IMG/VR virus record: IMGVR_UViG_3300037692_000109
Coordinates: 1-45,685 of that record
Reading direction: 5' to 3' (one strand)
DNA length: 45,685 nucleotides
Source of the DNA: a virus
Shown one piece after another: positions 1 through 45,685 of this stretch. Made by a program: the position numbers and the translations under genes. How positions within the stretch are numbered: the first letter of the stretch is position 1; the number at the start of each line of letters is the position of its first letter. Under the pieces are notes generated by a model. The model had not been told where the DNA came from. It saw nothing but the letters and a program-made list of their open reading frames with translations, and made no database searches.

Positions 1-127
1 ATCAGAGTGAATGGCGGTGTCCATCGCGTCTTCGAGGCCGCTTTCCGCCGCCTTCATGTACGATTTCAGGACCGGCTTGAGCTGGTTGGCACCCTGATTG
101 TTCAGGATTTCTTCCATGGTCAAGCTG
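1..127. repeat. Terminal direct repeat, copy 1 (identical to 45559..45685)
   Basis: Base-by-base comparison of the two window ends shows a 127/127 match. Confidence 0.95.
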
Positions 128-408
128 ATCGGAATCGCCACCATCTTCGGCGTGAAGTAGGCATCGTTGAACAGTTCGATGGGCGGGTTGTCCAGAAAAT
201 CATAGCCGGAATACCACTGGGCATCCTGCTTGGCGATCTGGAGGGTTTCGCGAATGCGGGGGCCTGAATATGACTCCCACAAACCTTTGCGCTTGAGCAC
301 GGCAAGAAGCGCGTTTCCGTTGGAAACGAGGTCTTGCCAAGCCGGGGAGCGTTCCTCAAGTGCCATAGACAGCACTTGCTGATAGTTCGCAACCGGATTA
401 ATCGGCAT
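1..408 (-). CDS. Major capsid protein, N-terminal 136 codons (continues in frame into 45558..44947 across the circular junction)
   Basis: ATG at 408 is preceded by AGGAGA. The translation MPINPVANYQQVLS...PISLTMEEIL joins the ORF at 44947..45681 in frame. The ORF track misses it because it runs off the window edge. Confidence 0.8.
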   Translation of the reverse strand, partial: MPINPVANYQQVLSMALEERSPAWQDLVSNGNALLAVLKRKGLWESYSGPRIRETLQIAKQDAQWYSGYDFLDNPPIELFNDAYFTPKMVAIPISLTMEEILNNQGANQLKPVLKSYMKAAESGLEDAMDTAIHSD

Positions 409-19510: not shown

Positions 19511-19518
19511 TTGCCCCC

Positions 19519-20598
19519 ATGCCGCGCCCCAGGCCCCCGCATTTGCAGTCCGAGACGACGCGCCACGGTCGGAAGGTCTGGTATGTCCGCGTCGGCTCCG
19601 GCCAGCGCATCCGGCTCCGAGCTCAGTTCGGCACCCCCGAGTTTCAGGACGAATACGAGGCGGCCCTGCGCGGCGAGCGCCCCGTCAAGGGCAGCAAGGC
19701 CAAGGCCGGCACGCTCGAGTGGCTGATCGCCCGATACCGGGAAACGTCCGCGTGGGGCGACCTCTCGAGCGCCACCCGCCGCCAGCGGGAGAACATCATA
19801 AAGCAGGTCATCAAGACCGGTGGTCAGCAGCCCTATACCTCAGTCTCGAGCTCTGGCCTGGCCGCTGCTCGAGACAAGCGCAAGGACACCCCGGCCCAGG
19901 CGCGGCACTTTCTCGACACCATGCAGGGCCTTTTTAAGTGGGCTAAGGGTGCCGGTTTTGTGAAGATAAATCCGGTGTTAGACGTTGATTATCCTACACA
20001 AAAGAAGTCTCAGGGCTTCCCGGTTTGGACCGAAAATGATATCCTAAAGTACGAGCAAAAATGGCCTCTCGGGACCAAGGAAAGGGTCTGGCTGGCCGTC
20101 CTGCTCTACACCGGGCTTCGGCGCGGTGACGCGGTTCGGCTGGGCCGGCAGCACGTCCGAAATGGCGTGGCGACGATCCGCACCGAAAAGAGCCAAGGCG
20201 AAATCGAAGTCATTATCCCGATCCTGCCGGTTCTGGACGAAGCGCTCAAGGCAGGCCCTACCGGCGAGCTCGCATTCATCTGCGGAGCTCGAGGTGGCCC
20301 GCTGGTCAAGGAAGCGTTCGGAACCATGTTCTCGGAAGCCTGCCGGTTGGCGGGCGTGAAGAAATCAGCCCACGGCGTCCGCAAAGCCGGCGCCACCAGG
20401 GCCGCGAATAACGGGGCGACCGTGGCGCAACTCGAGGCGATCTTCGGATGGGTCGGCGGTCGTATGGCTTCGCACTACACCAGATCGGCAGACCGAGCTC
20501 GGTTGGCTCGAGACGGAATGGCCCTGCTGGCGAACGATGGCGGAACATCTATTCCCGCACCTGACGAAAAGGTGCGGGGCTCATTCAAAAAACAGTAG
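19519..20598 (+). CDS. int: Tyrosine integrase 1
   Basis: 359 aa with box I (TGLRRGD) and box II (HGVRKAGAT...GW...HYTR), giving the canonical R..HxxR..W..Y residues. Confidence 0.9.
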   Translation: MPRPRPPHLQSETTRHGRKVWYVRVGSGQRIRLRAQFGTPEFQDEYEAALRGERPVKGSKAKAGTLEWLIARYRETSAWGDLSSATRRQRENIIKQVIKTGGQQPYTSVSSSGLAAARDKRKDTPAQARHFLDTMQGLFKWAKGAGFVKINPVLDVDYPTQKKSQGFPVWTENDILKYEQKWPLGTKERVWLAVLLYTGLRRGDAVRLGRQHVRNGVATIRTEKSQGEIEVIIPILPVLDEALKAGPTGELAFICGARGGPLVKEAFGTMFSEACRLAGVKKSAHGVRKAGATRAANNGATVAQLEAIFGWVGGRMASHYTRSADRARLARDGMALLANDGGTSIPAPDEKVRGSFKKQ

Positions 20599-20607
20599 GT
20601 AAATCAA

Positions 20608-21729
20608 ATGGATAAAAATGCGATGGTGGGAGAGGTAGTTGTCGGACAATCCAATCCCGACAATGGCTTAGACCAAGGGTGCGGGAAATCAACCCCCTTT
20701 GAAGCACAAATGGAAATTCCGGCGGCTCCCGCACCTAAAGGCACGGTCCAATGGCTCATTGACGAATACCGGACCGACCGGGACAGCCCCTATCACAGCA
20801 AGCGCTGGCCGACCCGCCAGCACTATGACGTGCTGTGCAAGCGCATCGCCGCCGACTTCGGCACGCTGCCTCTAGCCGACATCCGCGCCCGGCAATTGAA
20901 GCGCTGGCATGAGGACATTGTGGCGCGCGGGCATGTCGCGATGGGTCACGGCCTCGTCGGGATGATCCGCACCCTCGTCGGCTTCGGCGCCACCATCCTT
21001 GAGGACAAGGAGTGCGAGCGGCTGGCCGGGATGCTGCACCTGATGAAGTTCGCGATGGCCAAGAGCCGCACCGAACGCCTGACCGCCGAACAGGCCAACC
21101 TGATCCGGCGCGAGGCTCACAAGGCCGGCCGCCCGTCGATTGCCTTGGCCCAGGCCATCCAATTCGAGGGGATGCTGCGCCAGAAGGACATCATCGGGGA
21201 ATGGGTGCCGGAAACCGAACCCGGCCAGTCGGAGGTCCGCGCCTATGGCCAAAAGTGGTTGCGCGGCATTCGATGGGAGGAAATCGACGCCGACTTCGTG
21301 TTGGTCCACATCACGTCCAAGCGCCAGAAGGAAATCACTATCGACCTGAAACTGGCCCCCATGGTGGTCGAGGAACTGCACTACGCGATGGGCCAGAACG
21401 CCATCGGCGGCTTGCAGCGCGATAAATTCCCGGCGACTGGCCCTGTAATCTGGAGCGAGGCCAGTGAACTGCCGTGGATCGCGGGCGAGTACCGCCGCTG
21501 GTGGCGGAAGCTGGCGCGGGCCGCCGGCATCCCCGACAGCGTAAGGTCGATGGATTCGAGAGCCGGCGCGATCAGCGAGGCGACCGACGCTGGTGCCGAT
21601 CTAGAGCATGTGCGCCACGCGGCCACGCATTCCGACATTGCCATGACGATGCGTTACAGTAGAGGCGCAGAAGACAAGATCGCTGGCGTGCAGCGGAAGC
21701 GCGCTGAACACAGGAACAAGGCGTCGTGA
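20608..21729 (+). CDS. Tyrosine recombinase 2, with non-canonical Met at the His-II position
   Basis: Box II MDSRAGAIS...THSD...RYSR aligns without gaps to integrase 1 (R to Y spacing of 32 in both). Box I is MLRQKD. The start may be internal (M35, at 20710). Confidence 0.8.
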   Translation: MDKNAMVGEVVVGQSNPDNGLDQGCGKSTPFEAQMEIPAAPAPKGTVQWLIDEYRTDRDSPYHSKRWPTRQHYDVLCKRIAADFGTLPLADIRARQLKRWHEDIVARGHVAMGHGLVGMIRTLVGFGATILEDKECERLAGMLHLMKFAMAKSRTERLTAEQANLIRREAHKAGRPSIALAQAIQFEGMLRQKDIIGEWVPETEPGQSEVRAYGQKWLRGIRWEEIDADFVLVHITSKRQKEITIDLKLAPMVVEELHYAMGQNAIGGLQRDKFPATGPVIWSEASELPWIAGEYRRWWRKLARAAGIPDSVRSMDSRAGAISEATDAGADLEHVRHAATHSDIAMTMRYSRGAEDKIAGVQRKRAEHRNKAS

Positions 21730-22232
21730 CCAAAGCTACTAAAATCTATGACCTAGATGTGGACCGCCTCCATGAAGTTTTGGACTACGATCCGGAAACC
21801 GGCGTGTTCACTTGGCGCGTTCGAACTGGCCCTATGTGCAAGCTGGGTAGCCCGGCAGGGAGGATTGGAGCAGACGGCTACCGATCTATTGGCCTCGACC
21901 GCAAGACCTATAAAGCCCACCAGTTGGCATGGCTTCATGTCCACGGAGAGCCGCCCGACGACGAGCTTGATTTTATCAACGGCGACAAGTCCGACATTCG
22001 CTTGGTTAATCTTAGGCCCGCTACCCGCGCAGACAATGCGAGGAATGCTAACCGGCCATCGAACAGCACCGGCTACCGAGGCGTGAAGAAGTTTCACAAC
22101 CGCTTCCATGCCGTGATTCGGCATGGTGGGAAACGTCACTTTATCGGAACCTTTGCGACGGCAGAGGAAGCCTACGAGGCTTACTGCGCCAAGGCTAAGG
22201 AGCTTCACGGCGAGTTTGCGCGTTTCAAGTGA
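21726..22232 (+). CDS. HNH endonuclease with an AP2 DNA-binding domain (homing-endonuclease-like)
   Basis: HQLAWLHVHGE...INGDKSDIRLVNLR...ADNARN (HNH_3) followed by YRGV...F.A.I...GK...GTFATAEEA..AY (AP2). The GTG start overlaps the recombinase stop. Confidence 0.8.
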   Translation: MTKATKIYDLDVDRLHEVLDYDPETGVFTWRVRTGPMCKLGSPAGRIGADGYRSIGLDRKTYKAHQLAWLHVHGEPPDDELDFINGDKSDIRLVNLRPATRADNARNANRPSNSTGYRGVKKFHNRFHAVIRHGGKRHFIGTFATAEEAYEAYCAKAKELHGEFARFK

Positions 22233-31562: not shown

Positions 31563-33038
31563 CTACACATCCGTCGCAGCGTTGATTGGAATTTTTGTCA
31601 TTGCCGCCTGTAGCACCATCGTTTGCGTGTACGTGTCAGAGCCGTCTGCGGCCTTCCGGTAGACCTCGACGTACAGCATGCATTCCGCGCCGAACGTGCC
31701 GCCCGGCGTGAAAGTGACCTCGGATGAGATGTGCTGATCACCGTCCGCGAGAAAGGCGTCGGTTGTCTCGGCGGCAGTGCCCCACGCGCCGTCTATTGCG
31801 TCGTCGTCGCGGACGTAACGACCGCGAATGCCCCAAATTACATTGCCTGTGCCGGCCGTGGCCGTGGTAGCGTAAAACTTACACTTGAGAGCGCTCGCGC
31901 CATCCATCCCCTTCGGGGCGGGGTAAGCGATCTGGATTGCCTGTTCTACGCTTGCGGAAAATTCGTAACCAGCAATCATTACGTCATTGGTGGCCTTCTC
32001 GCTAGCATAAGAAGCTGCGCCATTCGTGGTGCGCCTCACCATGCCTGCGGCGAGCAAATTGACTGTGTGGTAGCCCTGCTTGATCCCGGCCGCCGTCAGA
32101 TTAGCTGGCGTGAGCGTGCGCGTCATGTCCGTCCCAGTCAGCGCTTCCGCATCGGTCGCCAGTTCAACAACGCCTGAGGCAATGTCGGTAGCAGCTTGCT
32201 TGATGTTCGCGAAGGCGGTTGCCGCGCTCGCAACACCACCCGCGCCTTCTGCGAGGTTGTCCGCGCCGATCATATCGCCAACGCCTGCGCCGTCCGTGCC
32301 CGGCTGGCCAGCGACGTTAATAAGCCAATCGGTTAGCGTTCCTGAGCCGAGCGACTTGTCAGCCGTGAACGCAAGCGTAGTGCCGCTGTATGAACTGACG
32401 ACACCTTCCATCCAGTTGGTTGCAGGTACAGCGGCGTCGGATGCCCGCGCCCGTGTCCCGACCTGATAGGCAAGCCCGGCCTGTGTCGTGAACGTCTTGG
32501 TCCCGGAACTTCCGATTGTCTGGCTTGAAGCGGACGTTGCCGCGAAGGACGCGCCCTGTATTCCCTGCAAGCCCTTAATGTTCGTGCCCGTATCGGTCCA
32601 AACACCGGCCAGAAGTTGGTACAGATCAAGGTCGGTGCTGTCGGCGTCAACCCAGATCGATTCATTCGGCTCGCTTGTTGAAGGAGCTGAGTCTTGGACG
32701 AATATCAACGAACCAAAGGCCCCGGCTGGGCCGGAAAGCCTGATCGTCCAGTCGGCAAGCGTTCCGGTGCCGCCAATAAGCTGGACATCTACAGTCAGCG
32801 ACGTGCCGGAATAAGCACTGATCTGACCGAACATATAGTTAGTTTCGTCGGCATCAGAGGTCGCGATTACAAAGTCGCCAGCCGCGAAGTCCTTGCCTGC
32901 CTGCGTCGTGAAGACCTTCTCAGCAACCTCAATGGCTAGCGAGGTCGTTGACGTAGCCTTGTAGAGTGCGAAATTAAGCGATTGCAGAACTGTCGCCATC
33001 GGCGTTGTAGTGATCGGGAATGCGTTGACGGTCGCCAT
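31563..33038 (-). CDS. Tail fibre / host-specificity protein 2, with an internal domain duplication
   Basis: 491 aa from the ATG at 33038 (TAATG overlap). Gly/Thr/Ala-rich, with two copies of a module of about 66 aa. Confidence 0.75.
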   Translation of the reverse strand: MATVNAFPITTTPMATVLQSLNFALYKATSTTSLAIEVAEKVFTTQAGKDFAAGDFVIATSDADETNYMFGQISAYSGTSLTVDVQLIGGTGTLADWTIRLSGPAGAFGSLIFVQDSAPSTSEPNESIWVDADSTDLDLYQLLAGVWTDTGTNIKGLQGIQGASFAATSASSQTIGSSGTKTFTTQAGLAYQVGTRARASDAAVPATNWMEGVVSSYSGTTLAFTADKSLGSGTLTDWLINVAGQPGTDGAGVGDMIGADNLAEGAGGVASAATAFANIKQAATDIASGVVELATDAEALTGTDMTRTLTPANLTAAGIKQGYHTVNLLAAGMVRRTTNGAASYASEKATNDVMIAGYEFSASVEQAIQIAYPAPKGMDGASALKCKFYATTATAGTGNVIWGIRGRYVRDDDAIDGAWGTAAETTDAFLADGDQHISSEVTFTPGGTFGAECMLYVEVYRKAADGSDTYTQTMVLQAAMTKIPINAATDV

Positions 33039-34405
33039 TAGATGTTGTCCTCCCATCCCTGACAAAGAAGTCCGGTATCGGTCGCGCTCGATGCGTAATA
33101 AATATTTGTGCTTTCCAGCATCATCTCACCGGAGATTTTCTGATAGAAAACATTGCCGGAGAGATTATGTGACAAACCTAGTGGCGGTGCATTGTTTGCA
33201 GCAGTGTTGTTGCCATAGCTGCTGTTCGGAGCAACCTGCGTCGTTTTGCTAGCCGCACTAGAATTTGAATATAGATGCAGCCTGATCATTGATGCAGTTG
33301 ATGGGACGAAGCTCGACACGCTGACCGCTGTCCATGTCGGCACGGACGGATCACCGGCAGCGCCACCAACAATAAGCGGAATTAACGAGGTCTGTGCGAG
33401 CCCAAGGATATATTGAGCTTGCCGCCCGAGTTGCCATGTGCCGAGAAGCTGCGCGGCGGCGGTCGCTGTTCTGACCCAGCCGATGCGCGCTTTGTAAGTG
33501 TAGTCAGCAGGCATCGTTGGCGATGAACCGGATGTAGAGGCTACGCATTTCGTCGTGCCATAGGCTTTGGCAACGACCCAGATTGCGTACCATGTAGCTG
33601 CGGCAATCCCGCCGGTATCGAGCGCGTCCGCTCCTGTAGTGCCGAGATCGATTGTTGAGTTAACCGCCGTGGTCTGGAAATTCGTCCCGTTGGTCGTTGT
33701 AACGGCATCGGCCGTTACAGTGACGGTTGTGTTCGATGCCACCTTTATGGAAAGGTTTTTGAACGCGGAAGCGATTGGCCCGGCTATACGCAATGGATCG
33801 CCAGTCGCCCTGTGGTAGCTCACCATCCGCCACTTGCCGGCTACATGTTCTTCAAATACGGCCCAATCTCCGGCGGCGGTCGTGATGTTCGCGCCGGTTG
33901 AAAGGATTAGATTTGTTGCGTCATGGGTAAGCGTAAGGATTTCAGCAAATCTGAGCATGACGACCGCGCCAACGCCTTTTGTCGCAATCGACGTAATCGC
34001 AATTGTTCCGGTAATGTTGAAAACATTGCCGTCGCCTAACGTGAGCGCACTGGCAGACGCCGTATCCCCGCCGTCCTTGAACAGTGCGGTTTTGCTCAGG
34101 ACAAAGCCTGAGCTATTGAACTCGGCAACCAGCACACCACTAACGGCAAGACCAAACCCTGTCGTTGTCTTGTAAATTCCGATATTCGTTGCGCCGTTAA
34201 AAGTGAGCGCGGGAGAGCCGACCGTACCTTCCGCCAATTTAAGGGCACCCGTCATTGGTGCCGCGCCGCTACGGGGCAGCCTTGCTGTCATGGACGTAGA
34301 CAAGTCTTCCAGCGGTGGGTTGTGCTGGCTCGCCTGGATTGTCTCGCCGGTCTGGGCGAGATATCCGGGCGGTAGACTGTGGACGCCGCTTGAATCTGTG
34401 GGCAA
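33038..34405 (-). CDS. Tail fibre protein 1
   Basis: 455 aa with a TTG start and a GAGGTG RBS. The N-terminal LPRSGAAPMTGALKL motif is typical of phage fibre N-termini. Confidence 0.8.
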   Translation of the reverse strand: MPTDSSGVHSLPPGYLAQTGETIQASQHNPPLEDLSTSMTARLPRSGAAPMTGALKLAEGTVGSPALTFNGATNIGIYKTTTGFGLAVSGVLVAEFNSSGFVLSKTALFKDGGDTASASALTLGDGNVFNITGTIAITSIATKGVGAVVMLRFAEILTLTHDATNLILSTGANITTAAGDWAVFEEHVAGKWRMVSYHRATGDPLRIAGPIASAFKNLSIKVASNTTVTVTADAVTTTNGTNFQTTAVNSTIDLGTTGADALDTGGIAAATWYAIWVVAKAYGTTKCVASTSGSSPTMPADYTYKARIGWVRTATAAAQLLGTWQLGRQAQYILGLAQTSLIPLIVGGAAGDPSVPTWTAVSVSSFVPSTASMIRLHLYSNSSAASKTTQVAPNSSYGNNTAANNAPPLGLSHNLSGNVFYQKISGEMMLESTNIYYASSATDTGLLCQGWEDNI

Positions 34406-36290: not shown

Positions 36291-37927
36291 TAGTTCACCC
36301 GCTCCCAGCTGTTGCGATCCGCCGGGTTGCCGCCCTTGAAGCGATAACCGTCCTTGACCTCGCCAGCCTGCGGCGGCGCGGTGGCGGGCTTCGAAGTACC
36401 GACATTCTCTTGAAACTGAAGCTTCTCGCGCGGCGGCCCTTTGCCTTCGCCGTGAATGATATCCATATAGTTGTTCTTCACGCGGCGAAGATTGTCCTTA
36501 AGTTGATCGTCGGACTGCGACTGCTCAAGATTGCCGATAGTCGCCTGCAAATATGCGATTTCACGCTCTGACACTTGCCCAAGCGCGCCACCCGTCGGTG
36601 AGTTGTTGCGCATCTTTTGCAGTTCAGCAAAGCCTGCATTCGCCTTCACGGTATCAATAAGGGCCCCAACGTCGCGGGCGGCAGTGCCGCCAAAATTCGA
36701 AAGAATCTGACCGACCATGCCAGTGGTCGGCAACGTAGAATTATCGATCTTTGAAATTGCCCTATCGATGTCCTGCGTTACGACATTGCCAACCTGCCGT
36801 TGCTCTTTGTCTCGATCTTCCTTACCGACCATCTTTTCAGCATTGCCTTTAGCGGTCGCCACAGCGGCGGCTTTGGCGGCTTCAAACTTAATAGCAGACT
36901 CACCGGCACCGGGAGCGTTCAAAACACGAAGGTCATTCGGGTTCTTCTTATTGACCGCAATCACGCTACCATCGGGCCGCTGCTGAATGTCGTAATCGCT
37001 TTGCTTCATCTGCTGTTGCAAGATGATGTTAGCGATGGCTTTGGTCTGCGGCGACGAATACGGGCTGGTAGCCGCCTCGATCACTTTCGGATTGACGCCA
37101 GCCATAGGGCCACCCGTGGCGGGCCGCGCGGTCGCCTGTGTCGGGCGGGCGGCGGTAGGCAATGAGCCTTCATCGCCCATTCCACCTGTGAACTTATCAG
37201 CATAGGCCATAACGGTCGTGCCGAGCTGATCCTTGGCGTTCGGATTTTTCATCCCGCCTTCGCCGGCAAACCAAGCCTTCGATGCACCGGGAGCGCCATA
37301 CTTTTCGGCATATTGGCCAAACTTGCCGTTAAACACCGCGTCCTGCGCGTCCGGGCTGCTGATGAACTCCTGCGGAGTCATGGCACGGCCCATAACCTCC
37401 TTGGTCCAAGGAGCAACATTCGCGCCCATCACCTGATATTTACCAAGCGCTTGATCGCCAGAGGCCGTAACAGGCCCTTTGATGTCGTAGCGTCCGCCGC
37501 TTTCGATATTAGAGATCGCCCCCTGAGCGCGCGGCAGCATGGCAGCCGTCTCAGGTTTGAGATCGGCCATCGCGTCAATGCTGTTGAACTGGTCAGCAGG
37601 AACGATCTGAGGTTCTGACGGCGGTGCTAAAACTGGACCAGCGGTATAGCCGCCGGTCGTTGCCGGCGTAGCCCCGCCGCCGCCAATGAGGGATGCGATC
37701 ATCTCCCGATCCGCCGCAGCGTTAGTCCTTGCCGCTTCGTCGGCTTGTCCGCTTTCCAACCCGCCGAGTAAAGCCTGGGACACCCGCGCCGCGCCCTGCC
37801 ATGGCGATTGAATGGGCGAATAGTCCATGCCCTTTTCCATCAGGGCTTGAGCAACCTTGCGCTGAGCGGCAATCTGCTCCGGCGTCATTTGCGCCCCGCC
37901 TTCGCCCCATACGAATGGTGCTGCCAT
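36290..37927 (-). CDS. Internal virion protein with a lytic transglycosylase-like domain
   Basis: NIESGGRYDIKGP...ALGKYQVMGANV carries the catalytic Glu-Ser and G.YQ motifs of SLT-like muramidases. Confidence 0.8.
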   Translation of the reverse strand: MAAPFVWGEGGAQMTPEQIAAQRKVAQALMEKGMDYSPIQSPWQGAARVSQALLGGLESGQADEAARTNAAADREMIASLIGGGGATPATTGGYTAGPVLAPPSEPQIVPADQFNSIDAMADLKPETAAMLPRAQGAISNIESGGRYDIKGPVTASGDQALGKYQVMGANVAPWTKEVMGRAMTPQEFISSPDAQDAVFNGKFGQYAEKYGAPGASKAWFAGEGGMKNPNAKDQLGTTVMAYADKFTGGMGDEGSLPTAARPTQATARPATGGPMAGVNPKVIEAATSPYSSPQTKAIANIILQQQMKQSDYDIQQRPDGSVIAVNKKNPNDLRVLNAPGAGESAIKFEAAKAAAVATAKGNAEKMVGKEDRDKEQRQVGNVVTQDIDRAISKIDNSTLPTTGMVGQILSNFGGTAARDVGALIDTVKANAGFAELQKMRNNSPTGGALGQVSEREIAYLQATIGNLEQSQSDDQLKDNLRRVKNNYMDIIHGEGKGPPREKLQFQENVGTSKPATAPPQAGEVKDGYRFKGGNPADRNSWERVN

Positions 37928-38928
37928 CAGGCCAACCCCAGCATTTCGTAGTTGACCATCAGGTATCCGCTCGGGTGCGTAATGACGGCTTCCGGCATGA
38001 CACCCCGCACTTCATCGGCCATCACGCCGCGCTGGCGCTCACCAAAGATCGTGTATTCGTACAGAGGAAAGTCGTGCGCGGTCGTGCCAACACGTTCTAT
38101 GTCTGTCTTTAACCGGCGATCAGAGAACATGGCCGCACCGCCGCCGTATTTCAAAGCCGCGCTGCCAATCGTCCCGCCAAGGCCGAACATCCCGCCCATA
38201 GCAGCGTTACCTGCCCCCACGTCAGTCTGGTACTGCTTCATGGCGTTATTGTAGTTGTTGTTGACCATGCCCATGTAATCGACGCCGGCCACCTGCGATT
38301 GCGGCGTGCTCTGGAATGTCGGATTAGAAACCTGCGAACCGGACATTAGCGCGGTAATTTCGTTGATCGGCTGGTTGCGCTCGGTCAACAATTCCTGATT
38401 GGCCTGTCCGCGACCGGCCAAGAGCAGCGAAGTGATTGCATCGTTCTTGGTATTGCCGAACCCAGCCATTTCGGCGTCAAAGGCGGCAGAGCCCGCCCGG
38501 ATGCCGCTATTTGCAAGCCTTGTCCGCAATGCTTCTTCATCGCGGGCAAAACGAGGGTCTAAGCGCTTGCTGCCAAGCTCCATCAGGCGAGCTTCCGTCG
38601 CCTCATTGCCCAGCTTCATCGGCGTGCCGAGCAAGTCACCAATGCGGCCCGACTGATCGCGCCCGATATTGGCGATGTTCTGCTTGGTGATCTGGTTAGT
38701 GTCGAAAATGCCCTGCGAGGCTGGGCTGAGCGATGTCGTCGCTGAGAAGCGCGGCGTGCCGTCCGCCCAGGTTCCGCCTTGGGTATATTCAAGCGAGCCG
38801 TCCGGCGTGTATTGATTGATCGCGTTAAGCCCGGTCTGTGCGACCGCCGTTTCCTTATTCATCGCACCCTGAGCCTTGGCAGTGGCTACCGGATCGGGTG
38901 CTGGAGGCGGTGAAGGGGAGCTACCCAT
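37927..38928 (-). CDS. Virion protein with a C-terminal Peptidase_S74 intramolecular-chaperone domain
   Basis: The C-terminus SDRRLKTDIERVG...PLYEY...GVMADEV..VMPEAV...VNYEML is the S74 auto-processing signature. Confidence 0.75.
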   Translation of the reverse strand: MGSSPSPPPAPDPVATAKAQGAMNKETAVAQTGLNAINQYTPDGSLEYTQGGTWADGTPRFSATTSLSPASQGIFDTNQITKQNIANIGRDQSGRIGDLLGTPMKLGNEATEARLMELGSKRLDPRFARDEEALRTRLANSGIRAGSAAFDAEMAGFGNTKNDAITSLLLAGRGQANQELLTERNQPINEITALMSGSQVSNPTFQSTPQSQVAGVDYMGMVNNNYNNAMKQYQTDVGAGNAAMGGMFGLGGTIGSAALKYGGGAAMFSDRRLKTDIERVGTTAHDFPLYEYTIFGERQRGVMADEVRGVMPEAVITHPSGYLMVNYEMLGLA

Positions 38929-39333
38929 TTATTTTATCCACTTCTCGGCTTGTTCGCGTAGAAGATAAAACCGCAAGGCATCTTCATTGCCAAAATACAG
39001 TTTGCTTTCGCCTTCCGGTTCAAAACCGAAGCGCGGCAAAAGCTTTTGCATGTTCTCGTTTGAGCGGCGGGTGTAGGCGGTTAGCCTGATCGCCCCGGCC
39101 TGCCGGAATACGTAGTCATAAACGCCGGCGATAGCAGCACGGCTCAGCGCGCCCGGTCCGTACAGACTGATATCGAAGTTGAACCCGTTCCAGTTATTGA
39201 ACACGACGCCGACGCTGAGCGTCTTTTCATCAACCGTTCCTCCAATCGCCGTGTAAGGCGGCGACATCGTAATCCCAAGATTCTTGCCGACCCACTCCGC
39301 TACTCGATTATCCTCGCCAAAAATCAACCTCAC
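38929..39333 (-). CDS. GNAT-family N-acetyltransferase (RimJ/RimL-like pattern)
   Basis: 134 aa. YDYVFRQAGAIRLTAYTRRSNENMQKLLPRFGFEPEG matches the GNAT motif A/B region. The GTG start overlaps the upstream stop, and the next ATG directly follows its own stop. Confidence 0.7.
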   Translation of the reverse strand: MRLIFGEDNRVAEWVGKNLGITMSPPYTAIGGTVDEKTLSVGVVFNNWNGFNFDISLYGPGALSRAAIAGVYDYVFRQAGAIRLTAYTRRSNENMQKLLPRFGFEPEGESKLYFGNEDALRFYLLREQAEKWIK

Positions 39334-40994
39334 GAACCGATATCGCCTATCTCATACGTCAAATCGGTTTGCACCAACTCAACGTCCGGGGCCGAAATCG
39401 AGCCGCTCGTGATCTGTGTCGCTACCGACAGCGAATATCCGCTTCCGGCAATCGAGCGCCAATCCTGGAACGTGATCTTGTCAGCCGCGCCGCCCCATTT
39501 TGTTTCTCCCCAAATACCCGTGCCCCAGACACCTTCTGAGACAACGCTGATATCGTCGGGAGCGGCCGGCAGGCTGACCGTGTAATCCTTCTGTAGCGAA
39601 AGCTGCGCCTCGACAGCGGATGGCGCGCGAAGGACAGCACGCGCCAGCATTCCGGTCTTTAGCGAAGCTGGGGTTTTCAAAGGATCGAACAATGGGACGC
39701 AGGTTGCGACGTATGTTGCGCCCTGGTCCGAACCAGTAACCTCGGCTTCAATAATCCGGCCGTCGTTCGTCCCGAAGAACATTCGATCACCGAACACTTC
39801 AAGACAAAGAACATCCCATTCCGTGTACTGCGCCCATGCCCCGGTACGCGCATTGGCGACCAATACCGCCAAGTCTGTCGCGCCACCAGTCGGGTGCGCC
39901 ACAACAACCATTTGCTTGGTAGGCCATACAATACATTGCCAGTCTGCGTCAGGATGTTCCGCAACGATTTCGTTCCATGCCACTTCAATCGGATACGAAA
40001 CGGCGGAAGGCGACAGCGCGGCAAGATCGCGCTGGATGGCCTGCGAGAGAGGCACAAACCCTATATCGGTCGCAATGACGAGATCACCGCCAGCTCGGAT
40101 GAAAGCCTTTGGCCCCCTCGGCTTGCCGATGCGATAGACGCCGACTCTGCTCCATGTGTCGGCCGAGGCCGGATCGCTGCCCTGATAAACCGCTACCTCG
40201 CCTTCCGAGGTTACAAATACGCATTGTTCGTTAAGCCCGGACCCGGTATCGAGCGACCATGCCGCGCCGAACATCAGCGAGCCGCCCTTAGTAAACACGC
40301 CACCGAGGGGGAATTTCACAGCGAGGCCGCCAATCGAATCAACCGGCAGATACCATACGTCAAGCGTATCATTCTGAATGAAAAACAGACGGTTCTTAAA
40401 CGCCCAAACATGGGATAGCGTTGTCGGCGTTGCGCCAGTTATCGCTGGCGATGTGCCCCACGCTGATCCGTCATAGACCTGTGGCGTATCAACGCCATTC
40501 ACCGCCCGCAGAAACACCCCGCCGCTTGTCGCAAATTGGACAACCGACCAATCACCTCCGGTCAGAGATGAGATTGCCTCATCAGGCGTCGCCGGAAACA
40601 CCGGGAATATATCGCCCGTGTCGTCAACGAGAAAAGCTCCATCGTCATCGACAAGGAATTGATCTTCAGCATAAGTTACGGTCGTAATGTCGTAGACCGC
40701 CGCTACCGTCGAGGCGAACAGTGCCCTGGTATTACCATTGGCGTATGAAAACAGCGACGTGACCGGGAGAGAGCCGTCCCCGAGGAAAGCGTATCGCTGC
40801 GACCCTCCGCGCATCCGAACGCCGGTCGCGGTCGGAAACCAGTTTTCCAGCACTGCCGCGCCGTTGACTTTTGTACCGTCCGGTCTGCGAGCCTGTGGCG
40901 TTGCAAGATTTTCGTTTGCGATCCATCCCCCGACCGGAGCCGGAAAGCTTTTCAACTTCGACGCGCTAGGTTTACGAAGCGCCGGGGTTCGCAT
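39330..40994 (-). CDS. Putative tail tubular protein B / nozzle-like protein
   Basis: 554 aa following an adaptor-sized gene. The N-terminus (PAPVGGW...N...GVRMRGG) loosely resembles podoviral nozzle N-termini. Assigned mainly by position. Confidence 0.5.
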   Translation of the reverse strand: MRTPALRKPSASKLKSFPAPVGGWIANENLATPQARRPDGTKVNGAAVLENWFPTATGVRMRGGSQRYAFLGDGSLPVTSLFSYANGNTRALFASTVAAVYDITTVTYAEDQFLVDDDGAFLVDDTGDIFPVFPATPDEAISSLTGGDWSVVQFATSGGVFLRAVNGVDTPQVYDGSAWGTSPAITGATPTTLSHVWAFKNRLFFIQNDTLDVWYLPVDSIGGLAVKFPLGGVFTKGGSLMFGAAWSLDTGSGLNEQCVFVTSEGEVAVYQGSDPASADTWSRVGVYRIGKPRGPKAFIRAGGDLVIATDIGFVPLSQAIQRDLAALSPSAVSYPIEVAWNEIVAEHPDADWQCIVWPTKQMVVVAHPTGGATDLAVLVANARTGAWAQYTEWDVLCLEVFGDRMFFGTNDGRIIEAEVTGSDQGATYVATCVPLFDPLKTPASLKTGMLARAVLRAPSAVEAQLSLQKDYTVSLPAAPDDISVVSEGVWGTGIWGETKWGGAADKITFQDWRSIAGSGYSLSVATQITSGSISAPDVELVQTDLTYEIGDIGS

Positions 40995-41680
40995 CAGGCA
41001 CCGAGCGCGCGGGGATAGGCCAAGGACACGTCAAACGGCACACGCTGACGGCCGACTGTCAGAATATTAGAGCCTCTGTCCTTTCCGATTTCTTCGGACA
41101 TGGCGATATTGAAGTTCGCCAATTCCTCCGCATAGTCCATTCGTTTCGCCGCCCTCCAGCGCCAGACAACGCCAAGATTCAGCAACCGCTCGGGGAGCAA
41201 GAACGTATCGGCGTCGGCTGTGAAGGCCGTCTGGTTGCCCGAAACAATCTGGTTGGTGATGTAGTAAAACCGCGCCGTTTCACCGACCGGCATGGCCGGG
41301 AAAATGTTCATTTGGCCTGCAATAATAATCCAGCTTCCCGGCGTTGCGCTAAAATCCGTGTCTTGCAGATAAAGCCATTCATCCAGATCACGTGCCTTGC
41401 GAAAGTCCGAGGCTTGGAAGCTTGCCGAATGGACCAATCCCTTCTTCGGCATACGGTCATAATCGGACGGAAGGTCAAAGGCGGTCGCACTGGCATCGCC
41501 CGTCAGCGTTCCAAGCTTTAACAACCCCTGCCAGTCGTATTCCTGCGCAATGGCGACAGCCGCCTTGCCGGCCTGTAACCTAAGCTCCTTGGTAAACTGG
41601 CTGGGCGCGGAAAACAGCGATGTCGGCTCTGTCTGGTTCAGCTCTACAGCCGCTTCAGCGCAAGCCGACAGAACCGTCAT
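40994..41680 (-). CDS. Putative head-tail adaptor / tail tubular protein A-like
   Basis: 228 aa. Assigned by position and size only. Confidence 0.45.
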   Translation of the reverse strand: MTVLSACAEAAVELNQTEPTSLFSAPSQFTKELRLQAGKAAVAIAQEYDWQGLLKLGTLTGDASATAFDLPSDYDRMPKKGLVHSASFQASDFRKARDLDEWLYLQDTDFSATPGSWIIIAGQMNIFPAMPVGETARFYYITNQIVSGNQTAFTADADTFLLPERLLNLGVVWRWRAAKRMDYAEELANFNIAMSEEIGKDRGSNILTVGRQRVPFDVSLAYPRALGA

Positions 41681-42369
41681 TGTTCAGCCCCTTGCTTGGC
41701 GAGGATGGCATCCGCATCCTTAACGAGCGTGGCATGTGTCGCCCTGCCCTTCGGCACGGTGCCCTTGTTCGTCTTGATCCATTCCTTGATCGCTTCGTCT
41801 TCCCAATCCTCGAACGAGGATTGCCAGCCCGGTTCAATCAATGCCGCGCCCTGCATTTCGGAAATGGTGCGCTTCAGTTCGTCAATCTCGGTCTGCATCT
41901 TGACCACGTTTGCCGAGCCGCTGGCGTTGTCGAGATAGGCTTGCGCCTGATTTTTCAGTTCGCGCCCGCCCTGCCCCAGATTTTTCAACTCCTGACCGTC
42001 GAGCGCGGCCAGGGATTCAGCGGTGTAGATGCTGAGTGCCTTTAATTCGGAACGCTTGGCCTGTGTCAGAAACGGCAATTCCTCAACGGGAGTGCCGGCG
42101 GCGACTTGCTGAGCCTGCATTTTGAAACGGCGATACTGGTCCGGCCACCGCTGGGCGTAGGTCTGCGGTTCGTAATCGCCGGTCTGCGGGTTCAGTACCG
42201 TTGACCATACAGCATGGGCCGGGAAGGCGCTGACGGTCTGCCGATTACCGGCAAACCGGACCTCAACAATCTCCATGTCGTCAAAAATAGGGCGGGCCGC
42301 CTCTTTGGTCTTTGCCGGGTTCTTCTTCGTATGAATCTTAAACTGAGGCACCACCAATTGATCGTTCAT
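41677..42369 (-). CDS. Hypothetical virion-module protein
   Basis: 230 aa from the ATG at 42369, which overlaps the stop of the fusion gene (ATGA). Confidence 0.6.
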   Translation of the reverse strand: MNDQLVVPQFKIHTKKNPAKTKEAARPIFDDMEIVEVRFAGNRQTVSAFPAHAVWSTVLNPQTGDYEPQTYAQRWPDQYRRFKMQAQQVAAGTPVEELPFLTQAKRSELKALSIYTAESLAALDGQELKNLGQGGRELKNQAQAYLDNASGSANVVKMQTEIDELKRTISEMQGAALIEPGWQSSFEDWEDEAIKEWIKTNKGTVPKGRATHATLVKDADAILAKQGAEQ

Positions 42370-44363
42370 TTTAGTTCCTTTCCGTCTGAGGGAGCGCTGG
42401 GGATTTTTATAAACCAACAGTAGTTTTCGCCAATCTCCAGCGGGAGGCCGGATGCCTTGGCAAATTCGTTCACGGCTTCGGTTACGCCGAATTTAGGAAA
42501 GCCCGCGTTTTCGTAGTCATGACCGCCGAGCCAGCCACCCGGCTTAACCTTCGTAGCCCATGCTTCGATGTCAGCCTTGCATCCCGCGTAGGAGTGATCG
42601 GCGTCGAGAAAAACTAAATCGTATTCGTGCGGCGTCTGTTTTGCCGCTCGCACGGAACGACCGCGTAGGATTGTCCTGCGCTCGGCCGCAAAGGCGGTCT
42701 TGCTATTAGCCCGCTCGAAATAACCGTCTTGCTCAGCTTGCGACAATCCAGCATGGAAGTCGCCGCTATCGCCGTTATAGGCCTTGCCGTCGCCTTCCCA
42801 GCTATCGACCATATCGAGATGAAGGATCGGGTTGCCGTGTAAGAGAGCCGCCGACATGTCGCCGCCGAATACGCCGACCTCGGCAATTCTTGGGTTCGCT
42901 GCTCCGTTAAGCCGATTGAGAACTTCCGTTGCCCTGATCTGGGCGGAAGTCATAGGCATGTTATCGGCCAAGTCTCTGGCGACAGTTGGCAACAAACCAT
43001 CACCCGCTACGGTGATAATGCACCCATCGGCCACAAGACCCGGAACAAAATCCTGAAACTCATTGACCTGTTGCGCCATCCAAGGCGCTGCGCGGTAATG
43101 TTTGCCACGGTAAAGCGCGTCAACGATCCTGTCATTGTCGTTTAGCGTTTGGGCGTAAGCGTGGTGGTGATCTTCTCTGTAAGAGCTATCAAATCCGTGC
43201 AGGTGCATCTTGCGATACCCGGCCGCGAACGCCAGAACCATCGTGTTAAGCCCGACAGTCGAACCGCCGCCGATTAGATGAACCGGCCGGGCTTTCTCAT
43301 CCGAAAGAGCCTCACGCATTCCCGGCGCGTTAACGTGCCACAAGACCGTGCGGCCATCGGCAGCATCGAATAGCGACGGGTCGCATTGCGAGGCGAGATA
43401 AACCGCGCCATCATCCAGGATAAAACTGACGTTCTCCGGCCTTGCATCGACAATCACAACGGCGTCGGGCTCAATCCCATTGAGCTTCAGGAAATGCCCA
43501 GCGCCGTTAAGCGCCCAGACCTTTTGACCGATGCTCTGTCGCCATTTCAATTCCGGCAGAGTATCGGCAAGCGACGGCCCGCCACCAACGATGCAAACAT
43601 GCCCATCATGGGGTTGAGCCGTATCGAACCATGGTAGATCACGCGCGATGGAGGACCGCACATTACCGAGTGTCATTTCCAAAGCGGTGTTGCAGACCAC
43701 ATCAAGTTCGGCGCGGGTCATCCCGCCGACCTGCCAGACCTCAGGCACCCACCCATCGAGAACATCAAGCGGCTTGGGAAAGCCGTGAAAGCAAACCACG
43801 CTGGCTTTCGCTGGCGGACCATTGATTGTCTTGTAGGAGACGAACGCATCTGGGAATTCGGCCTGAAGCCTCACGGCGTCGGGTATCACGCTCTCAATCC
43901 ATGCCTGATCGCCCCAGGTATGGTTAATCTCGAAATCGTCGGGGCATCCCGCCGCTTCGTACTTCTCCCAAACCTGTGTCGTGGTCCCGGCTTCCCATGC
44001 CATGACCGCAGATTGCAGACCGTCAGGACGATAGAAGTCCTGCAACATCGCAAACGGGCCGCGATAGGCCGCTATTTCATCAAGTCTGCCGGTGATGACG
44101 CAGCCAAGATCAAAATACAGAACCCGATCACCGTCAGGAAATACCCCAGCCTTGTGCAGACCTAGCTTTGCCCACCATCCCGGTAAATCGACGGGCAATG
44201 GACGGACCTCAATGCCCTTGTCGAGCGCGTCGCCTTGGTCAGTGAAGCAGATGAACCGCCCCTCGAACCCATCCGCCAGATTGCGACGGACGGAATCGAA
44301 AAGGATATTGACGTAGGCCGGGGAAAAACGATCCCCGGCCCTTATGCAACAGATGTTGAGCAT
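42366..44363 (-). CDS. Three-domain fusion: glycosyltransferase-like, DUF115/Maf (MptE-like), and class I SAM methyltransferase (Methyltransf_24-like)
   Basis: aa 1-215: CCIRAGDRFSPAYVNILFDSVRRNL, PGWWAKLGL, VLYFDLGCVI. aa 250-460: VCIVGGGPSL, PDAVVIVD, LIGGGSTVGLNTMVLAFAAGYRKMHLHGFDSSY. aa 485-652: IAEVGVFGGDMS, YDLVFLDADHSYAGCKADIEAW..KPGGWLGGHDY. Confidence 0.8.
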   Translation of the reverse strand: MLNICCIRAGDRFSPAYVNILFDSVRRNLADGFEGRFICFTDQGDALDKGIEVRPLPVDLPGWWAKLGLHKAGVFPDGDRVLYFDLGCVITGRLDEIAAYRGPFAMLQDFYRPDGLQSAVMAWEAGTTTQVWEKYEAAGCPDDFEINHTWGDQAWIESVIPDAVRLQAEFPDAFVSYKTINGPPAKASVVCFHGFPKPLDVLDGWVPEVWQVGGMTRAELDVVCNTALEMTLGNVRSSIARDLPWFDTAQPHDGHVCIVGGGPSLADTLPELKWRQSIGQKVWALNGAGHFLKLNGIEPDAVVIVDARPENVSFILDDGAVYLASQCDPSLFDAADGRTVLWHVNAPGMREALSDEKARPVHLIGGGSTVGLNTMVLAFAAGYRKMHLHGFDSSYREDHHHAYAQTLNDNDRIVDALYRGKHYRAAPWMAQQVNEFQDFVPGLVADGCIITVAGDGLLPTVARDLADNMPMTSAQIRATEVLNRLNGAANPRIAEVGVFGGDMSAALLHGNPILHLDMVDSWEGDGKAYNGDSGDFHAGLSQAEQDGYFERANSKTAFAAERRTILRGRSVRAAKQTPHEYDLVFLDADHSYAGCKADIEAWATKVKPGGWLGGHDYENAGFPKFGVTEAVNEFAKASGLPLEIGENYCWFIKIPSAPSDGKELK

Positions 44364-44364
44364 A

Positions 44365-44886
44365 CTAGACCAGCGTGCCAGTCTTCTGGGTCGGTCGGTT
44401 GAGTGTCACCACACAAGTTGAAGTGGTGGTGGTGACGGTCGCGGTCGCCGGGAAGCGGGCACCTAGAACCTGACGACCGGCAACCGAAGTCGGCATGACG
44501 CGGCCGGCCGTGCCGGACAGATAGACCTTGAACGTCGAAGCAGGGTCGATCTTGGTGGCGGTTTTCAGAACCACGGCATTGCCGCTGATCTGGAACCATC
44601 CATAGAGGGCCGCCGTAATAGCCGCCATGGCAACAGCCACGGACGAACCACCATCGACAACGCCGGAGGTCGTTGTCAACTTGACCGCATCGGCAGCGGC
44701 GTTGTCGTAGTAGTAGACAAGCAGACCAGCGACGACGCCTGCGCTGCCCTTGAGATAGATGAACTCGCCTTCGCCATAGGTCGGATCGGTGGCCCTGACG
44801 ACAGTACCCACGGGGACCAGCTCAGTGCTGCTGGTGCTCGTGATCTTCGGATACCCCAGCGAAGGGGTCGCGATAGCATAAGCCAT
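44365..44886 (-). CDS. Putative capsid decoration/accessory protein (DUF2190-like pattern) with Ser/Thr-rich ends
   Basis: 173 aa directly after the capsid gene, with an AAGGAG RBS. Ser/Thr runs are KITSTSSTE near the N-terminus and ATATVTTTTSTCVVT near the C-terminus. Confidence 0.55.
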   Translation of the reverse strand: MAYAIATPSLGYPKITSTSSTELVPVGTVVRATDPTYGEGEFIYLKGSAGVVAGLLVYYYDNAAADAVKLTTTSGVVDGGSSVAVAMAAITAALYGWFQISGNAVVLKTATKIDPASTFKVYLSGTAGRVMPTSVAGRQVLGARFPATATVTTTTSTCVVTLNRPTQKTGTLV

Positions 44887-44911
44887 GTAAGGCTCCTTAT
44901 GGAATGAGGAA

Positions 44912-44941
44912 AGAAAAAAGGCGGCCCGTTAAGGCCGCCCT
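44912..44941 (-). terminator. Intrinsic terminator or attenuator immediately downstream of the major capsid gene
   Basis: Minus strand: GGCGGCC-TTAACG-GGCCGCC followed by TTTTTTCTTT, starting 6 nt after the capsid stop. Confidence 0.65.
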
Positions 44942-44946
44942 TAAGA

Positions 44947-45685
44947 TCACGAAGCCGTATCGGAGTCGTACATGCGCCAGTGGAACAGCGGGTTGGTCAT
45001 GGTCAACTCACCCATCCACCCGATGAACTGCGCAAGCGCGTCCTGGTTGATTGGCTTCTGGCCGTCGCCCTCGAACAGCTTGTCGAAATTGCGGCTCGGA
45101 TTGTAGCGGAGCCGCAGGCTGTCGGTGTCCAGACCGTAGGTCGTATCCGCCGGCATGTTCGAGCCGATACCGCCATCAAGGACGATTTCGGCACGCTTTC
45201 CGCCGCCAACATATTCCAGAGTCGAGAAGCCGAGCTTCGCAAGCCCGCCCTCCTTCTGAATGCGCTGGACCGCGATGGTCGCGGCGTCATACGCCTCGTA
45301 GTGCTCAGGCGACATCAACAGCAAATCGGCATGGCGGCGGCCACGGGAACGAGCCGTCATGATCCGGTTGAGAAGCGGACGGATCGTGGTTGAACTGACC
45401 TGTGTGCCGATACTCGCGAAGTCGGTATCGACATCATAGGTCGTGGTGCGCCAAATCGCGTTATCGACGCGCGAAATGCCGCCATAAGTTCCGGCGTCCT
45501 CGACAATCGGCACCGCCGCAGCTAGGCCGGTCAATTGCTTGCCGCCGTTCGCCGTGCCATCAGAGTGAATGGCGGTGTCCATCGCGTCTTCGAGGCCGCT
45601 TTCCGCCGCCTTCATGTACGATTTCAGGACCGGCTTGAGCTGGTTGGCACCCTGATTGTTCAGGATTTCTTCCATGGTCAAGCTG
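44947..45685 (-). CDS. Major capsid protein, C-terminal part (N-terminal part is at 408..128 after circular wrap; about 340 aa in total)
   Basis: The ORF runs to the window edge. The apparent TTG start is an edge artefact, and the frame is continuous with 1..408. Confidence 0.85.
   Translation of the reverse strand, partial: SLTMEEILNNQGANQLKPVLKSYMKAAESGLEDAMDTAIHSDGTANGGKQLTGLAAAVPIVEDAGTYGGISRVDNAIWRTTTYDVDTDFASIGTQVSSTTIRPLLNRIMTARSRGRRHADLLLMSPEHYEAYDAATIAVQRIQKEGGLAKLGFSTLEYVGGGKRAEIVLDGGIGSNMPADTTYGLDTDSLRLRYNPSRNFDKLFEGDGQKPINQDALAQFIGWMGELTMTNPLFHWRMYDSDTAS
45559..45685. repeat. Terminal direct repeat, copy 2 (identical to 1..127)
   Basis: 127/127 identity to the window start. Confidence 0.95.

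Follow-up and report, generated by a model that had tools for sequence, protein, structure and literature searches.

IMG/VR virus record IMGVR_UViG_3300037692_000109 was analysed over its full length of 45,685 nucleotides (nt), which we call the window. On its minus strand, directly after the gene of a 173-amino-acid (aa) decoration-type protein, lies a gene (42366..44363) for a 665-aa protein in which the open reading frame (ORF) and its Pfam and PHROG matches recognize a trifunctional enzyme: a GT8-like glycosyltransferase (GT), a Maf-like domain and an S-adenosylmethionine (SAM)-dependent methyltransferase (MT). We propose, with a probability of roughly 50%, that this fusion is a cytoplasmic enzyme of late infection whose three activities build a glycan on a virion protein, the likeliest acceptor being a conserved Thr/Ser patch on the adjacent decoration/cement protein. 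The candidate virion-glycosylation module is credible, widespread and undescribed. The initial annotation, made from the letters alone, had read the single ORF as three enzyme modules, and this reading stands: the GT and Maf-like parts are found by profile as well as by AlphaFold2 (AF2) modelling and Foldseek, and the MT part by profile. Every motif it quoted occurs in the translation (SPAYVNILFDSVRRNL, PGWWAKLGL, VLYFDLGCV, IVGGGPSL, PDAVVIVD and GGGSTVGLNTMVLAFAAGYRKMHLHGFDSSY), including those of the MT part (EVGVFGGDMS, DLVFLDADHSYAGC and KPGGWLGGHDY). The fusion has 1062 detectable homologues in metagenomes, the top 120 of which are all full-length fusions, and its relatives are encoded by 430 viral-contig stretches. 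The protein is predicted to be soluble, with no membrane segment and a highest 19-residue hydropathy of 1.48.

The central Maf-like (PF01973/MptE-like) domain occupies aa 245-470 (42954..43631, minus strand) and displays the motifs GGGPS, DARPEN and GYRKxHLxGFDSSY..HH. It matches the Pfam MptE-like family PF01973 over aa 253-397 (E=1e-13, 51.8 bits against a cut-off of 34.6). When a profile of 41 family members was searched against the PDB, Magnetospirillum magneticum Maf (5mu5) was found at E=5.3e-7 and the archaeal MptE HPPK (8sd5) at E=0.5. Foldseek with the AF2 model of aa 1-470 (mean predicted local distance difference test, pLDDT, 92.4) also ranked 5mu5 first at E=2.2e-9, with MptE 8sd5 at 6e-6, so that within PF01973 MptE/HPPK is the poorer match by both methods. 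The motifs GxGPS, GxTV and GF/YRxxxLxGxD are common to the phage domain and 5mu5. Pfam, the PDB profile and Foldseek all agree with the earlier assignment of a DUF115/MptE-like domain with the Maf fold. Relatives consisting of the Maf-like part only gave a weak match to NCBIfam FlagModPseD (23 bits against a cut-off of 670), and NCBIfam returned no match for the fusion, the 173-aa protein, or the 230-aa and GNAT proteins described below. It had also been stated that no equivalent with a Maf-like domain was known from an alphaproteobacterial podovirus, and this holds in the sources searched: the domain alone found no match by tblastn in 50,697 deposited phage genomes at E<=0.05, PHROG has no family for it, and the literature searched on Maf/DUF115 in phages contains no Maf-like domain in any phage.

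The N-terminal domain (aa 1-215; 43719..44363, minus strand) is a GT8-like glycosyltransferase of the GT-A fold. Residues 7-211 match phrog_1962 ('glycosyltransferase') at E=9e-34, and tblastn aligns the domain with P1 PmgQ and P7 HdmD at 26-32% identity over ~200 aa. Against the PDB the profile gave a weak match to the GT8 enzyme Gat1 (6mw5, E=6.5e-3), and Foldseek listed GlyE (7e-8), glycogenin (~5e-7) and Gat1 (4e-6), followed by the ABO GT6 enzymes. The fold is thus closest to GT8 (GlyE, glycogenin-1, glycogenin-2 and Gat1; target-normalised template-modelling (TM) score 0.39-0.63). The phrog_1962 match, the PDB profile and the AF2/Foldseek result bear out the nucleotide-sugar transferase-like domain that was first suggested. 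With GlyE (Streptococcus pneumoniae PsrP), glycogenin and Gat1 (Skp1) the phage domain shares the GT-A fold and an aligned DxD position; it differs in its low sequence identity to the GT8 structures (12-16%), in giving no Pfam match in aa 1-240 at E<=0.1, Glyco_transf_8 included, and in reading DLG at the DxD position. PmgQ and HdmD are homologous phage proteins of 'putative morphogenetic function' (phrog_1962), but they are stand-alone proteins of ~215 aa without a Maf-like or MT part, and the phages that carry such homologues are of unrelated types (myoviruses and jumbo phages). Homologues of the N-terminal domain are also present in the jumbo phages XacN1 and Xoo-sp13 and in Pelagibacter phage Mosig. 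PmgQ, HdmD and their kin may be protein or glycan glycosyltransferases too.

The unusual DLG triplet pointed out in the initial annotation is real (D85-L-G87; 44103..44111, minus strand), with the second Asp lost; HMMER aligns VLYFDLGCVI with IVYIDADAIV of Gat1 6mw5, placing DLG on DAD. It is a minority variant: among 165 non-redundant full-length fusions the triplet is DLD in 141, which is the family consensus, and DL[G/A/S] in 24. The second Asp of DxD is a metal ligand in GT8 enzymes such as LgtC and glycogenin. The GT8-like domain could therefore be catalytically dead in this phage and its closest relatives, with a binding or scaffold role beside active Maf and MT domains, since the metal-ligand Asp is Gly here and Gly, Ala or Ser in the whole group of 24, and modules with only the Maf-like domain exist, so that the GT is dispensable for the core function. 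We consider such inactivity doubtful; it would be compatible with the proposed glycosylation in any case. The GT remains the best conserved of the three domains in the DL[G/A/S] group (mean pairwise identity 0.64, against 0.58 for Maf and 0.61 for MT), and these figures do not support decay of the domain in the DLG clade. The motifs GDQ and FHGxP[K/R]P are retained in nearly all DxD variants; GDQ and HxG are the putative counterparts of the GT8 catalytic and metal motifs. On a neighbour-joining tree DLD was lost in ~8 parsimony changes, and the next residue shifts with it from T to C or N (DLDT to DL[GAS][C/N]). From this pattern of substitution, DLG looks like a functional variant rather than decay.

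The C-terminal part (aa 475-650; 42414..42941, minus strand) is a class I SAM methyltransferase of the Methyltransf_24 type with the motifs ExGxxxG, MVDSW, DADHSY and GHDY, in agreement with the original assignment. It matches Pfam Methyltransf_24 (PF13578) over aa 495-617 well above the cut-off (E=7e-15, 56.2 bits against 26.3), and residues E495, G497, D520, D587, D589, H590, H615 and D616 are invariant. The closest solved relative is MeT1 (6g7d), the mycobacterial methylmannose polysaccharide 1-O-methyltransferase, with which it shares the segment FIDxxH...W...GG...HD; the similarity is weak (profile E=3e-3 over 50 residues). PHROG labels the family of this domain 'DNA methyltransferase'. 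DNA modification is unlikely for a Methyltransf_24 domain that is nearest to a sugar O-methyltransferase in a genome where no base-hypermodification genes were found. The label nevertheless belongs to a broader alternative, in which the central domain is an MptE-type (pyro)phosphotransferase rather than a glycosyltransferase, or the module acts on a small molecule or on phage DNA. PF01973 does include the archaeal pterin pyrophosphokinase MptE, which Foldseek finds at 6e-6 (8sd5), and one related locus (L253, below) adds an ORF with a CTP-dependent riboflavin-kinase-like domain. We hold this alternative to be highly improbable. Maf beats MptE by profile (5e-7 against 0.5), by Foldseek (2e-9 against 6e-6) and in the shared GxGPS and GF/YRxxxLxGxD motifs; the MT leads to a sugar O-methyltransferase; the GT8 partner domain is similar to enzymes whose substrates are proteins or protein-linked glycans; and no base-hypermodification or pterin/flavin genes were seen in the window.

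The proposed acceptor is the product of the preceding gene (44365..44886, minus strand), a capsid decoration/cement-type virion protein of 173 aa that matches phrog_29386 ('virion structural protein') at E=1.5e-32. It is 40% identical to p49 of Myxococcus phage Mx8, a 'major virion structural protein' whose gene likewise follows the capsid gene. Its AF2 model is all-beta (pLDDT 71), and the top Foldseek matches are the phi29 gp8.5 base and the decoration proteins of Sf11, TW1, HFTV1, T1 and Pam3; lambda gpD ranks lower, and the BFVD matches include DUF2190-type proteins. A PDB sequence search with the family profile found nothing at E<=10. The homology to Mx8 p49, the gene position and a fold resembling trimeric cement/decoration proteins, if with modest scores, are in line with the decoration-like neighbour described at the outset, and we regard the 173-aa protein as a decoration protein with moderate confidence. 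Both Ser/Thr motifs noticed earlier, KITSTSSTE and ATATVTTTTSTCVVT, are present in the translation. When the 21 late proteins of the window were screened for clusters of at least six Ser/Thr in 8 residues, dense clusters were found in the 173-aa protein at aa 14-23 and 148-159 and at only one site elsewhere, in a 455-aa protein (33038..34405). The N-terminal run, KITSTSSTE (aa 14-22; 44821..44847, minus strand), is partly conserved, with the consensus IAxTxTTQ and ISDTSAVQ in Mx8; it is therefore less specific to the enzyme-bearing phages.

The C-terminal cluster contains the patch TVTTTTST (aa 150-157; 44416..44439, minus strand), which is the proposed O-glycosylation site. T150, T155, S156 and T157 are invariant in 47 homologues, and across the enzyme-bearing set the patch reads TVT(S/T)TTST near the C-terminus. 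Mx8 p49 reads TVTGTPTAGFT at this place, and the decoration proteins of the enzyme-less set read STTTGTPSxGL, ADGTPSAGF or GASAVGTPSAGLAEFEI. In 44 nucleotide versions of the patch the codons vary synonymously at all positions, TCN/AGY serine switches included. This free variation indicates selection on the protein and not on the RNA, and rules out that the patch is kept for an RNA element or for translational coupling.

The presence of the patch follows that of the enzyme. In about 60 viral and metagenomic loci, which were picked because they encode a similar enzyme (identity down to 41%), the genes run capsid, 173-aa protein, enzyme, 230-aa protein and adaptor. This order is also seen in Mx8 and in 80 Mx8-like viral contigs that were picked for their resemblance to Mx8 p49, but there no GT, Maf or MT gene lies between the decoration gene and p50, so the enzyme is an insertion at one fixed site. 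A further set of 53 loci came from viral contigs selected by their decoration-family protein, for which the patch served as one of two search patterns; at every patch-selected locus with enough downstream DNA a Maf-like gene lies right after the decoration gene. When unique decoration proteins are counted, 65 have both Maf and patch, 67 have neither, 11 have Maf without a strict patch, and a single one, on a truncated contig, has the patch without Maf. In this comparison the Ser/Thr content of the last 35 decoration-protein residues is 0.29 versus 0.16. The initial annotation had called for a survey of co-occurrence between the fusion and Ser/Thr-rich decoration proteins; across ~140 loci the patch does accompany the enzyme, mostly within one clade.

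What follows the decoration gene varies in architecture. We found Maf alone (255 aa, 12 unique loci), Maf with another class I methyltransferase, Maf-GT, GT-Maf-FkbM, GT-Maf with a separate FkbM gene (a Caulobacter prophage), GT-Maf-Methyltransf_24 as in the window, and GT-Maf-Methyltransf_24-Maf (~900 aa), while at loci L072, L093, L075 and L062 each activity has a gene of its own next to the others. Only the Maf-like domain is common to all variants; the GT and MT are optional, permuted or replaced, and the MT is drawn from three unrelated families (Methyltransf_24, FkbM/Methyltransf_21 and another class I type). Since the three activities are fused in differing orders or split into neighbours, with an MT from three families, they appear to be functionally linked, as far as gene arrangement can tell.

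Some variants deserve separate mention. A second Maf-like (PF01973) domain follows the MT in the variants of ~900-924 aa (P0058, P0062, P0113, L037:9980-12694 and L045), which hints at two different sugars or two acceptor sites. In locus L253 (IMGVR_UViG_3300025630_000258) the decoration gene and the gene of a GT-Maf-FkbM enzyme are separated by an extra ORF (5162-6118). Its N-terminus is class I methyltransferase-like and is joined to the riboflavin-kinase-like domain mentioned above (PF01982); the ORF may encode a further nucleotide-dependent step of the same pathway. A module in a cultured host, and thus one that is experimentally tractable, was found in a prophage of the Caulobacter sp. 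UC70_42 chromosome NZ_CP171994.1 (L088:7769-12084, at around 4.06-4.08 Mb of the chromosome). There a 97-aa Ser/Thr-rich decoration-like protein is followed by a 250-aa protein, a protein with poly-Pro and a weak SprB-repeat match, and a 488-aa GT-Maf protein, whose gene is overlapped by a separate FkbM methyltransferase gene.

Several observations weigh against glycosylation of the patch by the fusion. As to the enzyme, the PF01973 fold also covers a pyrophosphokinase, MptE, and the GT domain of this phage lacks the second Asp of DxD. No genes of nonulosonic-acid or other sugar-nucleotide pathways were found among the scanned ORFs of the 45.6-kb genome, so the donors would have to come from the host. 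As to the acceptor, the similarity to decoration folds is modest (pLDDT 71, Foldseek E 8e-3 to 0.1, TM 0.42-0.49), and enzyme-less relatives have a Thr-rich loop, STTTGTPS, at the same place, so that Ser/Thr richness alone is not diagnostic. When the core of the decoration protein is used for a tree, the Maf-bearing members fall into essentially one deep clade, with 3 parsimony changes; the association therefore counts as few independent events, and the tree rules out reading it as many. In eleven fusion-bearing phages the patch is present in degenerate form only, it is missing from the L072 decoration protein, which is partial, and L093 represents an independent gain of separate MT, Maf and GT genes in a clade of the enzyme-less type, again without the patch.

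Part of this evidence would fit a glycosylated virion with another acceptor, such as the major capsid protein, the 455-aa fibre-like protein or the 230-aa protein. L093 and L072 carry the enzymes while their decoration proteins lack the patch, and in L088 the GT-Maf and FkbM genes are several genes away from the Ser/Thr-rich decoration-like protein. The 455-aa late protein (33038-34405, minus strand; phrog_17105) is a candidate of this kind, being 23% Ser/Thr with the one dense cluster, STSGSSPT, at aa 290. In the mycobacteriophages, the acceptors are the capsid and tail-tube subunits (PMC11600133). Such a different acceptor is nonetheless unlikely in our view, given that in nearly all loci the enzyme gene directly follows the decoration gene, that no segment of the decoration protein is better conserved than the patch, which stands out in this way in Maf-bearing phages only, and that no dense Ser/Thr cluster occurs in the visible part of the capsid sequence.

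The genomic setting of the fusion gene bears on when the enzyme would be made. The upstream junction reads GTC TAG T ATG CTC, which places the fusion ATG 1 nt past the stop codon of the 173-aa gene, and the downstream junction reads AAA ATGA ACG, where the fusion TGA overlaps the next ATG; both had been correctly described. In the minus-strand gene order the fusion lies, as stated before, between the capsid/decoration and the adaptor/tail genes. No sigma-70-like site was found on either strand of 37000-45685 (8.7 kb), where 3.8 would be expected by chance, and the base composition of the gene resembles that of its neighbours. The tight junctions and neighbour-like composition therefore point to read-through late transcription and translational coupling, and the gene is embedded in the late structural operon, as claimed, without a promoter-like site of its own and without intergenic space. 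A moron gene with its own promoter is ruled out on the same grounds. A strong intrinsic-terminator-like hairpin (44917..44942, minus strand; 11-bp stem with 7 G-C pairs, then a T run) lies in the gap between the capsid and 173-aa genes and probably acts as an attenuator that cuts transcription into the decoration and enzyme genes. Judged from these signals, the expression pattern would fit small amounts of enzyme made beside its substrate and would speak against expression from the prophage.

This last point matters for the possibility that the enzyme modifies a host structure (flagellin, lipopolysaccharide or capsule) and serves lysogenic conversion, superinfection exclusion or receptor masking on lysing cells; the initial annotation had raised it for a host surface glycan or flagellin and a block to superinfection. 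The phage is temperate, as its integrase-like genes (19507-21729) indicate, and genes for glycan modification are common in temperate phages. Mx8 lacks the gene, which is an accessory insertion, and flagellins are the only characterised Maf substrates (PMC11339370). However, the gene should be silent in lysogens, since it is enclosed in the late head operon by a 1-nt gap on one side and an ATGA overlap on the other and has no promoter-like site, and the protein shows neither a membrane segment nor a signal-like region that would suit it to glycan work in the periplasm. It also lacks the flanking domains of Maf and the TPR domain of Maf-1 (a GlfM-type factor was not searched for). The fusion is as well conserved as the structural genes (62% identity in the relative L001, against 57-58% for capsid and decoration), and the enzyme tracks a motif in a virion protein. 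We accordingly judge a host target to be improbable.

The preferred reading, glycosylation of the decoration protein, can be put as a sequence of steps. Modification would take place before or during head assembly, at the conserved C-terminal TVT(S/T)TTST of the trimeric decoration/cement protein. The Maf-like domain would put the first sugar O-linked on Ser/Thr in the cytoplasm, using by analogy with the flagellin Maf enzymes a host-made CMP-activated nonulosonic or ulosonic acid; the GT8-like retaining transferase would then add a hexose from a UDP-sugar, and the MT would cap the glycan by O-methylation. The glycosylated trimer would then bind the expanded capsid, where the glycan might act as a surface shield, stabilize the capsid or promote adhesion. 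Caulobacter makes pseudaminic acid for flagellin (PMC7591256), so that at least one host genus could plausibly supply the donor.

The closest known system is formed by the Maf flagellin nonulosonic-acid O-glycosyltransferases (M. magneticum 5mu5, Maf of Clostridium botulinum (CbMaf; PMC11339370) and Shewanella Maf-1/Maf-2), which have the same central PF01973 domain and provide the best structural match. We liken the phage enzyme to them because they are cytoplasmic and O-glycosylate surface Ser/Thr of a protein from which an external structure is later polymerised. The flagellin specificity of canonical Maf proteins derives from flanking domains, a TPR domain or GlfM (PMC11339370; bioRxiv 10.1101/2023.12.03.569772). 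The phage protein, in contrast, has neither the degenerate Rossmann N-domain nor the helical C-domain nor a TPR domain (no Pfam TPR match), with the limit noted above for a GlfM-type partner; the absence of the flagellin-specificity domains is consistent with a different acceptor. Its central domain is flanked by a GT8-like transferase and a SAM methyltransferase instead, and its gene lies in a head operon and not in a flagellar or nonulosonic-acid island.

In mycobacteriophages, phage glycosyltransferases and an O-methyltransferase serve to glycosylate proteins of the capsid and the tail tube (Freeman 2023, as cited in PMC11256854 and PMC11600133). The system of Che8, Corndog and cluster O follows the same logic of glycosyltransferase plus O-methyltransferase with a proposed capsid glycan coat. 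Its enzymes are separate genes near the genome end (PMC11256854), whereas here there is one fused enzyme inside the head operon; no Maf-like domain is reported for it, and its acceptors are capsid and tail-tube subunits, compared with probably a decoration protein here. Mycobacteriophage hosts are Actinobacteria, and the present phage is a podovirus with hosts that are probably Alphaproteobacteria. What is new in the window is the type of enzyme, since a Maf-like one has not been described for a phage capsid, while virion glycosylation by GT and O-methyltransferase is known from mycobacteriophages. The literature searched for glycosylated decoration proteins and for nonulosonic acids on virions held nothing relevant.

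The rest of the genome places the module in an Mx8-like podovirus. The contig is circular or terminally redundant (~45,558 bp), since window positions 1-127 are identical to 45559-45685 (127-nt overlap); an independent assembly of the same phage is a 45,588-bp Logan contig. The major capsid protein gene (minus strand; phrog_9953, E=1.9e-53; weak SU10_MCP match) is split across the window ends, with the C-terminal 244 codons at 44947..45685 and the N-terminal part at 1..408; the joined frame was read, and a 339-aa product was called on the Logan contig. On the minus strand the order is capsid, 173-aa protein, 665-aa fusion, 230-aa protein (41677..42369, minus strand; phrog_20268, homologous to Mx8 p50 and translationally coupled to the fusion by ATGA), SU10-type adaptor (40994..41680, minus strand), 554-aa neck/nozzle-like protein, GNAT-type acyl-CoA N-acyltransferase (38929-39333, minus strand) and a 333-aa fibre-like protein ending in a Peptidase_S74 chaperone. 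The Mx8 head module (p48 capsid, p49, p50, p51 adaptor) has the same order, with homologous capsid, decoration, p50, adaptor, neck, GNAT and fibre proteins, but no gene between p49 and p50. The GNAT gene, within the tail/neck part of the structural operon, keeps its position in Mx8, Rhizobium phage RHph_I3_18 and most related contigs, with or without a glycosylation enzyme. It may be a second virion-modifying activity; being conserved in enzyme-less Mx8-like phages too, it was ruled out as part of the module.

The genome also carries terminase, portal and endolysin genes and two adjacent tyrosine-integrase-like genes (19507-20598 and 20608-21729, plus strand; phrog_1), on which we base the temperate lifestyle. 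After them comes an HNH endonuclease with an AP2-like domain (21726-22232). A small early-region ORF (18897-19328, plus strand) has a T5orf172/MUG113 domain, with a DUF968 protein (16395-16763) and helix-turn-helix proteins close by; none of these is linked to the module. Megablast of window 41000-45685 against the 50,697 phage genomes gave no match. The closest cultured relatives of the 554-aa protein are in Rhizobium phage RHph_I3_18 (45%) and Brucella phage Tb (44%), with further relatives in Sulfitobacter, Ruegeria, Bradyrhizobium and Myxococcus Mx8-type phages, and related modules occur in Bauldia, Caulobacter, Shinella and Salinarimonas, as prophages or on contigs. From these prophage genera and nearest cultured relatives, an alphaproteobacterial host, as given in the initial description, is likely for the phage of the window.

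Taken further, we would tentatively suggest that a large group of uncultured temperate Mx8-like podoviruses took over Maf chemistry and coats its capsids, via the patch, with sialic-acid-like (nonulosonic) host sugars that are often extended by a hexose and methylated, although this wider picture is clearly less probable than modification of a virion protein as such. Should this wider picture prove right, it would provide both the first 'sialylated' capsid of a bacteriophage and the first acceptor of a Maf-family enzyme that is not a flagellin. Glycosylation of the patch, if true, would give the Maf family a short, highly conserved acceptor patch that is attractive for glyco-engineering. The proposed 173-aa acceptor and the single 665-aa enzyme are a directly testable pair, and a related module is available in a cultured lysogen, Caulobacter sp. 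UC70_42. Glycans on the capsid could influence how stable the phage is, how it adheres, and whether it is recognized by the immune system or by capsid-sensing defence systems. Phage-directed virion glycosylation has been documented mainly in mycobacteriophages; a second, mechanistically different system, with a Maf-like initiating enzyme, a gene in the head operon and more than 1000 metagenome homologues, in phages of Gram-negative soil and water bacteria, would suggest that capsid glycan coats are more widespread.

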